Below, in pieces: positions 37,224 through 37,323 of a stretch of 64,000 bases of DNA. Numbering within the stretch: position 1 is the first letter of the stretch; each line of letters begins with the position of its first letter. A program made the translations under genes and the position numbers. The notes under the pieces were generated by a model that saw nothing but the letters and a program-made list of their open reading frames with translations, did not search any database and was not told the DNA's origin. Origin of the DNA: a virus; the IMG/VR virus record IMGVR_UViG_3300010430_000024, positions 9,647-73,646 of that record, one strand, 5' to 3'.

Positions 37224-37323
37224 GCGGGATGCCAGTGGTGGCATTGCTCCATCGTCTACACCATGCTCGACAGCGAGCCGACTGAGGATGGTTATCATAG
37301 TTCGATTCTATAATCCCGCTCCA
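37224..37323 (+). ncRNA. Y RNA-like unit 2: tRNA body with permuted Ro-binding helix in place of the anticodon arm
   Basis: GCGGGAU/AUCCCGC-U-CCA; D loop AGUGGU; T loop UUCGAUU; centre ACC-AU-GCUCG-acag-CGAGC-CGA...GUUAUC. Confidence 0.7.

Follow-up and report, generated by a model that had tools for sequence, protein, structure and literature searches.

The 64,000-nt stretch of phage DNA analysed here (the window, part of the 73.6-kb phage record IMGVR_UViG_3300010430_000024; all coordinates are window positions) carries an array of Y-RNA-like units upstream of a Ro60/Rsr gene. The second unit of this array, at 37224..37323 on the plus strand, is a conserved cloverleaf in which the acceptor, the D-like arm, a Ro-type stem and the T arm follow one another in the order of a tRNA, and we refer to it as tY, for tRNA-order Y RNA. 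We consider it probable, at roughly 0.6, that tY is a Y RNA that partners the phage's own Ro60/Rsr in native tRNA order and, judging from its sequence and from known analogues, its release would most likely occur by RNase P cleavage, giving an RNA that ends in CCA. Of the 82 phage Ro60 loci sampled, about one in five have the parts of the Y RNA family YrlA (Rfam RF02553) rewired in this manner, into native tRNA order with an open acceptor end.

A conserved cloverleaf in tRNA order

The tRNA-like body of tY had been described in an initial annotation made from the sequence alone, and all of its elements were recovered. The acceptor strands GCGGGAU (37224..37230) and AUCCCGC (37313-37319) form 7 bp, and the 3' strand runs on into the discriminator U73 (37320) and an encoded CCA (37321-37323), so that this part spans 37313..37323; CCA is encoded in the bona fide tRNA-Tyr of the phage too. 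The D-like arm GCC-AGUGGU-GGC (37231..37242), with GG in its loop, adjoins the acceptor without an 8-9 linker, as is typical of the window type. The T arm AUAG-UUCGAUU-CUAU (37297..37311, loop UUCGAUU at 37301-37307) has a 4-bp stem and is followed by an extra A (37312) ahead of the acceptor 3' strand, which as a fifth T-stem pair would be a C-A mismatch. In the place of the anticodon arm stands the array motif in reversed strand order (...ACCAUG-GCUCG-ACAG-CGAGC-CGA...GGUUAUC), again as annotated. This central arm (37249..37291) folds on its own (-15.3 kcal/mol, z = -2.26) and is composed of the anticodon-stem equivalent CCAUC/GAUGG (37249-37253 with 37287-37291), an asymmetric internal loop, and the terminal helix GCUCG/CGAGC (37265-37269 with 37274-37278), which is closed by the loop ACAG (37270-37273). 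The variable-loop position is taken by UUAUC (37292..37296), which together with the preceding G forms the GUUAUC of the array and is invariant in six close homologues. All these parts lie on the plus strand.

With ordinary tRNAs, tY thus shares a 7-bp acceptor, GG in the D loop, a T loop of the form UUCRANY, and a discriminator followed by CCA. What it lacks is the 7-nt anticodon loop: 33 nt lie between the strands of the stem at this position, with no conserved loop. The cloverleaf described earlier is both the minimum free energy (MFE) structure and the centroid in ViennaRNA (-33.6 kcal/mol), and 7 of 200 shuffled sequences fold equally well (z = -1.81). Folding energy alone makes a modest case for tY, and it is the comparative data that carry the case beyond chance.

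Six further distinct sequences share the fold of tY. The seven sequences, gathered by Ro60-based and pattern-based searches, come from the window and from loci L003, L259, L005 (identical in L006), L258, L007 and the more distant L008. The covariance model was seeded on the window sequence alone, rebuilt on four sequences, and then used to align all seven; alignments made with MAFFT (A1-A3) are not structural and were left out of the counts. As many as 99.4% of the 161 pair cells hold standard pairs, and 14 of the 23 pairs show compensatory changes on both sides, a number reached in none of 500 shuffles; these counts are generous because the alignment was fitted to the model, and so leans towards structure, and because the seven sequences represent about three lineages, but the direction is still clear. 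When the 3' partners were slid by 1-3 columns as a control, only 34-47% of the cells remained paired. Compensatory pairs occur in every helix (acceptor 5/7, D 1/3, anticodon-position stem 3/5, terminal Y helix 2/4, T stem 3/4), and the acceptor, D and T helices are 100% paired across all seven sequences. In each of the seven, the cloverleaf is either the MFE structure or within about 2 kcal/mol of it. G1:C72, C2:G71 and U73 are invariant (7/7), CCA is encoded in 6/7, and the closing loop of the central arm measures 4-6 nt and is of the GNRA type in L005, L258 and L007.

Of note, L258 is a 7.2-kb contig in a bacterial metagenome-assembled genome (MAG) of the order Desulfuromonadales (G001), and its Ro60 locus with tY is near-identical to that of the window, which may be a weak hint at the host group or may reflect a mis-binned phage contig. 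When 151 genomes of this order were searched, a match of ~100 nt was found in G001 only, the other matches listed being 74-77 nt long.

The Y handle and its occurrence in phage Ro60 loci

In each of the four other main units of the array, named Y1, Y2, Y3 and YrlA, the 5' end pairs with the 3' end in a terminal helix, which leads through an asymmetric internal loop to a second helix and then to the sequence GUUAYC. The internal loop has CGA or CGG on the 5' strand opposite A(A/C)CAUG on the 3' strand. The central arm of tY is built from identical parts with the strand order reversed and a tetraloop closing the stem, and both the bulge sequences and GUUAUC are those of its neighbours. Since the two halves of this arm covary (3/5 pairs in the helix at the anticodon-stem position), they pair in cis and not with neighbouring units. 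The motif CCGA-N(5-16)-GTTAYC occurs six times in the window, against 1.38 expected, and five of these occurrences fall within 37135-37816. On the 5' strand, the motif reads GCCGAC in tY, GCCGAU or GCCGAG in four homologues, GCCGGA in L007 and AUCGAC in L008.

The closed form of this handle, AUGCUCG-loop-CGAGCCG, is present in three copies in the 64 kb, all of them between 37263 and 37917, indicating that the loop-closed handle is a recurrent module of the locus. Aside from the copy in tY, one lies at 37731..37816 on the plus strand (z = -2.49), behind a promoter-like site (P2). It opens with AUGCUCGACAG, as does the tY hairpin, and carries an insertion of 37 nt with a terminator-like hairpin (37771-37786) in it. 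Both L004 and L005 have this stem but not the insertion, and L258 has the insertion without the U run. The third copy (37897..37917, plus strand; AUGCUCG, a 7-nt loop and CGAGCCG), identified by motif search and folding, stands directly before the rsr ribosome-binding site, 10-15 nt ahead of the Ro60 Shine-Dalgarno sequence, and by eye is near-identical in L003, L004, L005, L007, L258 and L259. Its sequence and position make it a candidate operator through which Ro60 might regulate its own translation.

The Ro60 gene begins 609 nt downstream of tY on the same strand, and Ro60 adjoins the element in L003, L005, L007, L258, L259 and L008 as well. A pattern for the 3' half of tY, picked without regard to Ro60, gave seven matches in the viral and genome collections, six of which are tY elements while the seventh is an ordinary tRNA-Thr. 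For two of these six (L258 and L259) the start of rsr could be read downstream, and the other four are contigs that had first been fetched via their Ro60 gene. Among the matches listed for two earlier patterns, most were ordinary tRNAs with a UUAUC variable loop.

For a wider survey, an alignment of 11 Ro60 proteins was used to obtain 80 phage loci out of 429 relatives, and a descriptor was run on 82 Ro60 loci. This descriptor is blind to topology, as it looks for a Y motif before a T arm and then for a 7-bp partner of the next 7 nt, either downstream or upstream. It returned 18 tRNA-order elements in 15 of the 82 loci, of which about 2-3 upstream partners are expected by chance according to a hand estimate and some come from duplicate loci (L005/L006; L288/L290), and 22 standard elements with a closed acceptor in 17 loci. 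The remainder comprised 14 hits without a partner and two of ordinary tRNA length. Folding of the newly found tRNA-order elements gives cloverleaves in which the Y arm is closed. Most of them resemble YrlA in their D arm, have a T stem rich in G and C, and carry an additional hairpin, its loop 7 nt long, after GUUAUC and before the T arm; a YrlA-type elbow is present in the tRNA-order elements of L288, L296, L314 and L342. The clade of the window is a reduced form of 100 nt whose body differs. As discriminator, each of A, C, G and U occurs across the class, and the tails are U-CCA, C-CCA, G-CCA or, often, without CCA. An alignment of ten sequences (A10) misplaced the L294 acceptor as well as both the D arm and the T arm of L314; no counts were taken from it, and these elements were judged by folding only. 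The elements at L304 1985-2108 and L275 2442-2601 have tRNA order but their central arms are less clearly of the Y type.

The Rfam tRNA model recognized five stretches of 120-156 nt in these loci, with 43-48 bits. Four of them are tRNA-order elements that had already been folded, and the fifth lies at L275 2692-2847. That several of these non-decoding RNAs score above the threshold of this model is a warning for annotation.

Several candidates were set aside. L161, L060, L027, L016 and L307 hold standard YrlAs with a closed acceptor and a coincidental upstream partner; L222 and L173 were taken as standard on the sole basis of a downstream acceptor partner at their T arms; and the hit in L298 is an ordinary tRNA-Ser. 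The standard YrlA-type units of L144, L161 and L222 have a 7-bp acceptor whose closing loop starts with NCCA, a layout as expected for an RNase P-cleavable YrlA of the Mycobacterium smegmatis kind. In four cultured actinophages, out of 356 Ro60-encoding records, the descriptor found no tRNA-order element; a downstream closed-acceptor partner was present at one Y-motif T arm each in L346 and L347, and none in the other two loci.

L008, a 101-kb phage contig, has its Y array (5100-6090) downstream of Ro60. In this array, tRNA-order elements at 5523-5621 and at 5622-5738 follow each other head to tail, and a stem of the Y type encloses a tRNA-Thr called by ARAGORN (5996-6067).

The array and its surroundings

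The 840 nt preceding the Ro60 gene contain no long open reading frame (ORF) and are occupied by the repeated RNA scaffold. The array is headed by a promoter-like site, P1 (TTGACT-16 nt-TATCAT, 37094..37121, plus strand), with 10 of 12 consensus matches; four such sigma-70-like sites were seen against 0.7 expected, and by eye P1 is kept in L003, L004, L005, L258 and L259. Based on the sequence, P1 would drive Y1, tY, Y2, Y3 and the YrlA unit. Unit 1 (Y1, 37129..37219, plus strand) has the standard topology with paired ends, and its MFE structure shows a terminal helix, an asymmetric internal loop and a second helix (z = -3.48). It is separated from tY by the 4-nt spacer CUAA (37220-37223). In the AU-rich 3' trailer of tY, a hairpin was read from the sequence (37331..37349, plus strand), which by eye has counterparts with other stem sequences in L003, L007 and L259 and may aid processing or stability. 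Further downstream on the plus strand, folding showed two more units of standard topology, unit 3 (Y2, 37366..37441) and unit 4 (Y3, 37455..37534, z = -3.04), and a YrlA-type unit with T arm, loop-closed acceptor and D arm (37547..37686), assigned by folding and by a match to RF02553. This match (37559-37675, 36.4 bits, E = 5.9e-06) is under the gathering score of 69, and the unit is the sole stretch of the array touched by the Rfam YrlA model. P2 (TTGACT-16 nt-TACAAT, 37696..37723, plus strand), found in the promoter scan, follows. The 7-nt loops found directly after GUUAYC in Y3 (CUGUUAA, 37481-37495) and in the YrlA unit (CUGAAAA, 37570-37582) resemble anticodon loops, and similar CUGUUAA or UGCAAA loops occupy the same place in L003, L008, L060, L288, L314 and L342.

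The Ro60/Rsr gene (37932..39563, plus strand) encodes 543 amino acids with the Pfam domains PF25045 vWA_Ro60 (5.4e-60) and PF05731 TROVE (6.4e-39). Downstream of it are genes for a YqaJ exonuclease, RecT and SSB, and upstream, on the opposite strand, genes for a helicase and a primase. Just past Ro60, at 39615-39744, lies another structured RNA with a promoter-like site of its own (MFE -50.5 kcal/mol, z = -2.91). It has a stem that resembles an acceptor and a T-like arm whose loop reads UUGGAUU, and no Y motif was recognized in it. Elsewhere in the window, ARAGORN reported a tRNA with a two-base anticodon and no assigned type (23286-23360, minus strand), and a single ORF of 3,941 amino acids (47327-59152, minus strand) is very large for a 73.6-kb phage. 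Of the 52 ORFs that reach 150 amino acids, 30 were scanned with Pfam, and among these no RtcB, CCA-adding enzyme, PNPase or synthetase was found. A megablast of 36700-39600 against cultured phage records gave no matches, and the sequencing runs listed as containing the locus comprise 12 DNA and no RNA runs.

Proposed role, alternatives and known systems

In the mechanism that we propose, P1 would drive a polycistron in which tY is unit 2, and RNase P would cut at G37224, thereby also defining where unit 1 ends, 4 nt upstream. Trimming would then remove the AU-rich trailer as far as the encoded CCA. The closed hairpin could dock on Ro60 like an ordinary Y stem, with the tRNA elbow and the acceptor end facing away. 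The only free ends would have moved to the acceptor and its CCA, making tY a poor substrate for 3' exonucleases and one that a CCA-adding enzyme could repair, and such resistance would be useful for an RNA working alongside nucleases of the PNPase type. In this position, tY might act as YrlA does, as a gate or a tether on Ro60. We infer these steps from the conserved cloverleaf, the shared handle, the linkage to Ro60, and analogous RNAs including the precedent of M. smegmatis. The element also offers a simple test of whether Ro60 reads the handle whichever end of the helix is closed.

Several observations weigh against tY being a Ro60-bound Y RNA. In the literature searched, no report was found of Ro60 binding a Y stem that is closed by a loop, and GCCGAC is one base off the GNCGAA motif given in a figure legend of Chen 2014 (PMC4201824). 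Neither ARAGORN nor Rfam RF00005 makes a call over tY, even at E <= 10; the window type departs from a good tRNA in its missing 8-9 linker, its 4-bp AU-rich T stem and its 6-nt spacer after the D arm; and the folding z-score is just -1.81. The leaning of the model-fitted alignment has been mentioned above, and L008 is the weaker member in it, with 38 bits, one unpaired cell and no CCA. Finally, tY is absent from two close relatives of the phage, L004 (Ro60 80% identical) and L256 (71%), and is therefore dispensable, though conserved.

This dispensability would suit an element that serves as processing punctuation only, its tRNA-like fold being an RNase P signal that frees unit 1 and the downstream units while the excised RNA has no job. 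tY is the sole tRNA-order unit of its array, in which the other units are set apart by AU-rich spacers, it begins 3-4 nt past the 3' strand of unit 1 in all six close homologues, and the tRNA-like elements in which some mammalian long noncoding RNAs end, cited in Wang 2018 (bioRxiv 10.1101/312249), provide a precedent. However, an RNase P signal needs no Y stem, yet both central helices are kept by compensatory changes together with the bulge sequences of Ro-type units, and the tRNA-order elements of other phages lie elsewhere in the array, or downstream of rsr in L008, and still carry the handle, so we regard punctuation alone as unlikely. A decayed tRNA gene, or a tRNA with an intron or other insertion, unrelated to Ro60, is very improbable. 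The body is indeed tRNA-Gly/Cys-like, and the Rfam tRNA model takes some members of the class as tRNAs with long inserts, but no 7-nt anticodon loop can be derived, no two homologues agree in the sequences that flank the 5-bp stem, what is inserted is the handle of the array itself, ARAGORN is silent here as well as in L003, L005 and L007, and all helices are held by compensatory changes, unlike in decay. Equally hard to accept is that tY is a mere junction between the 5' part of one Y RNA and the 3' part of the next, with an incidental cloverleaf. The terminal-helix sequences are similar across units, so that adjacent halves would pair by default, and a 3' half followed by a 5' half without a tRNA body is also found at 37731-37816 and at L004 2521-2569. 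Against this, the acceptor stem spans the whole element with 5/7 pairs compensatory, the helix at the anticodon-stem position is unit-specific and covaries in cis, and the closing loops are 4-6 nt long and GNRA-type in three homologues.

The initial annotation also suggested that tY might be charged with glycine or bound by EF-Tu, and might in this way recruit Ro60 to the ribosome or serve as a decoy for tRNAs. The bacterial tRNA-Gly identity set comprises G1:C72, C2:G71, G3:C70, U73, C35 and C36, the last two being major determinants for glycyl-tRNA synthetase. The acceptor part of this set, which the annotation had recognized, is retained incompletely: G1:C72, C2:G71 and U73 are fixed, unlike acceptor pairs 3-7, but G3:C70 occurs in only 3/7, and C35 and C36 are missing as tY has no anticodon loop. 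Similarly, the acceptor agrees in 6/7 pairs and in U73-CCA with the tRNA-Gly genes of the Desulfuromonadales, the candidate host order, but the D arm and the UUAUC loop resemble tRNA-Cys as much as tRNA-Gly, so that the body is Gly/Cys-like. The eight best-matching ordinary tRNA loci in the 151 genomes are six tRNA-Gly, one tRNA-Cys and one tRNA-Thr. With discriminators that vary and a CCA that many members lack, no single identity is common to the whole class. The sequence thus partly supports the tRNA-Gly reading, and charging of tY, for which the CCA encoded in 6/7 homologues speaks as well, is possible but not favoured. Aminoacylation of cleaved M. smegmatis YrlA has been raised as a possibility (in the part of Chen 2014 consulted, PMC4201824), but for tY a role through charging with glycine or another amino acid, or through EF-Tu, seems quite unlikely. 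There is likewise only a slim chance that the tRNA-order Y RNAs in general are tRNA-end mimics, which after maturation by RNase P and CCA addition would be aminoacylated or engaged by EF-Tu, the CCA-adding enzyme or another reader of acceptor ends, and would deliver phage Ro60, with host PNPase, to the machinery of translation or tRNA quality control.

A Y RNA that partners Ro60 therefore remains our preferred reading of tY, and YrlA is its closest known relative. Both lie beside Ro60/Rsr and combine a Ro-type bulged stem, located at the position of the anticodon arm, with a D arm, a T arm and an acceptor. In YrlA the T arm lies 5' of the D arm and the acceptor is closed by a loop, as the texts available of Chen 2014 (PMC4201824) and Wang 2018 (bioRxiv 10.1101/312249) confirm, whereas tY reads acceptor, D arm, Ro stem, T arm and acceptor-CCA. 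The initial annotation was thus right about the opposite topology, and its proposal of a circularly permuted YrlA holds insofar as tY is the topological inverse of YrlA, with free ends at a 7-bp acceptor and a loop-closed Ro-type stem. Permuting the YrlA unit next to it would not give tY, whose D arm and T stem depart from the conserved elbow. In the portion of Wang 2018 consulted (bioRxiv 10.1101/312249), YrlAs are described as tRNAs in circular permutation, without a free CCA end and with highly conserved D-stem and T-stem sequences; this elbow is GCC/GGC with AUAG/CUAU in tY but GUAGCUCA..GGUAGAGC with a GC-rich T stem in the YrlA family consensus. RF02553 has no match to 37224-37323 even at E <= 10, which is expected in any case because the permuted order cannot match this model. 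According to the same portion of Wang 2018 (bioRxiv 10.1101/312249), Y RNAs build their Ro-binding stem from their own 5' and 3' ends, and the 5'-strand motif is given as GNCGAAN0-1G in the consulted part of Chen 2014 (PMC4201824). The ends of tY sit in the acceptor stem instead, and its Ro-type stem is closed by ACAG. No description of a tRNA-order Y RNA was found in the full-text literature searched, supplements being outside this search, and the phage YrlA list of Chen 2014 might show such forms. A 2025 paper on a Thermus phage Ro60, in the text accessible to us, describes binding of the phage protein to phage Y-like RNAs and to host PNPase.

Other known systems share single features with tY. 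Yrn1 of Deinococcus radiodurans is, in the accessible text of PMC4201824, a Y RNA with tRNA-like features in which a D-like part precedes a T-like part, but its Ro stem is at the acceptor position with a stem-loop at the anticodon position, and it has no free-ended acceptor and no CCA. Transfer-messenger RNA and the tRNA-like structures at viral 3' ends are also tRNA mimics with a free CCA, but these are aminoacylated and have no Ro-type handle. Cleavage of mascRNA-type elements by RNase P, as cited in the available text of Wang 2018, gives the preceding RNA its 3' end, as cleavage of tY would for unit 1, but these elements are eukaryotic and have no protein-docking arm. The permuted tRNA genes of algae and of one archaeon, cited in the same text, present the same pair of closed- and open-acceptor topologies; they are precursors of decoding tRNAs, whereas the two Y topologies both seem to be final forms, and no decoding is done by either.

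A close parallel is the YrlA of M. smegmatis, which, as reported in the part of Chen 2014 at hand (PMC4201824), is cut in its acceptor loop by RNase P in vivo and by M1 RNA in vitro and gains CCA, for which the authors raise protection from nucleases and possible aminoacylation. The cleaved molecule is a tRNA-like Y RNA bound to Ro60 and, like tY, has a 7-bp acceptor with free 5' and CCA-3' ends. Its two pieces, of 82 and 65 nt, are held together by pairing, and its CCA is finished post-transcriptionally, whereas tY is a single chain with a closed Ro stem and a templated CCA, and can be seen as the natural single-chain counterpart. The tRNA-order form may also be the ancestor of YrlA by way of tandem duplication. 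A head-to-tail pair of tRNA-order elements would contain a complete YrlA, reaching from the first T arm to the second D arm, which fits the model, relayed in the available text of Wang 2018 (bioRxiv 10.1101/312249), that YrlA originated from dimeric tRNA transcripts. If true, such an ancestry would make this model concrete, and tY would be a tangible intermediate in the proposed descent of Y RNAs from tRNAs.

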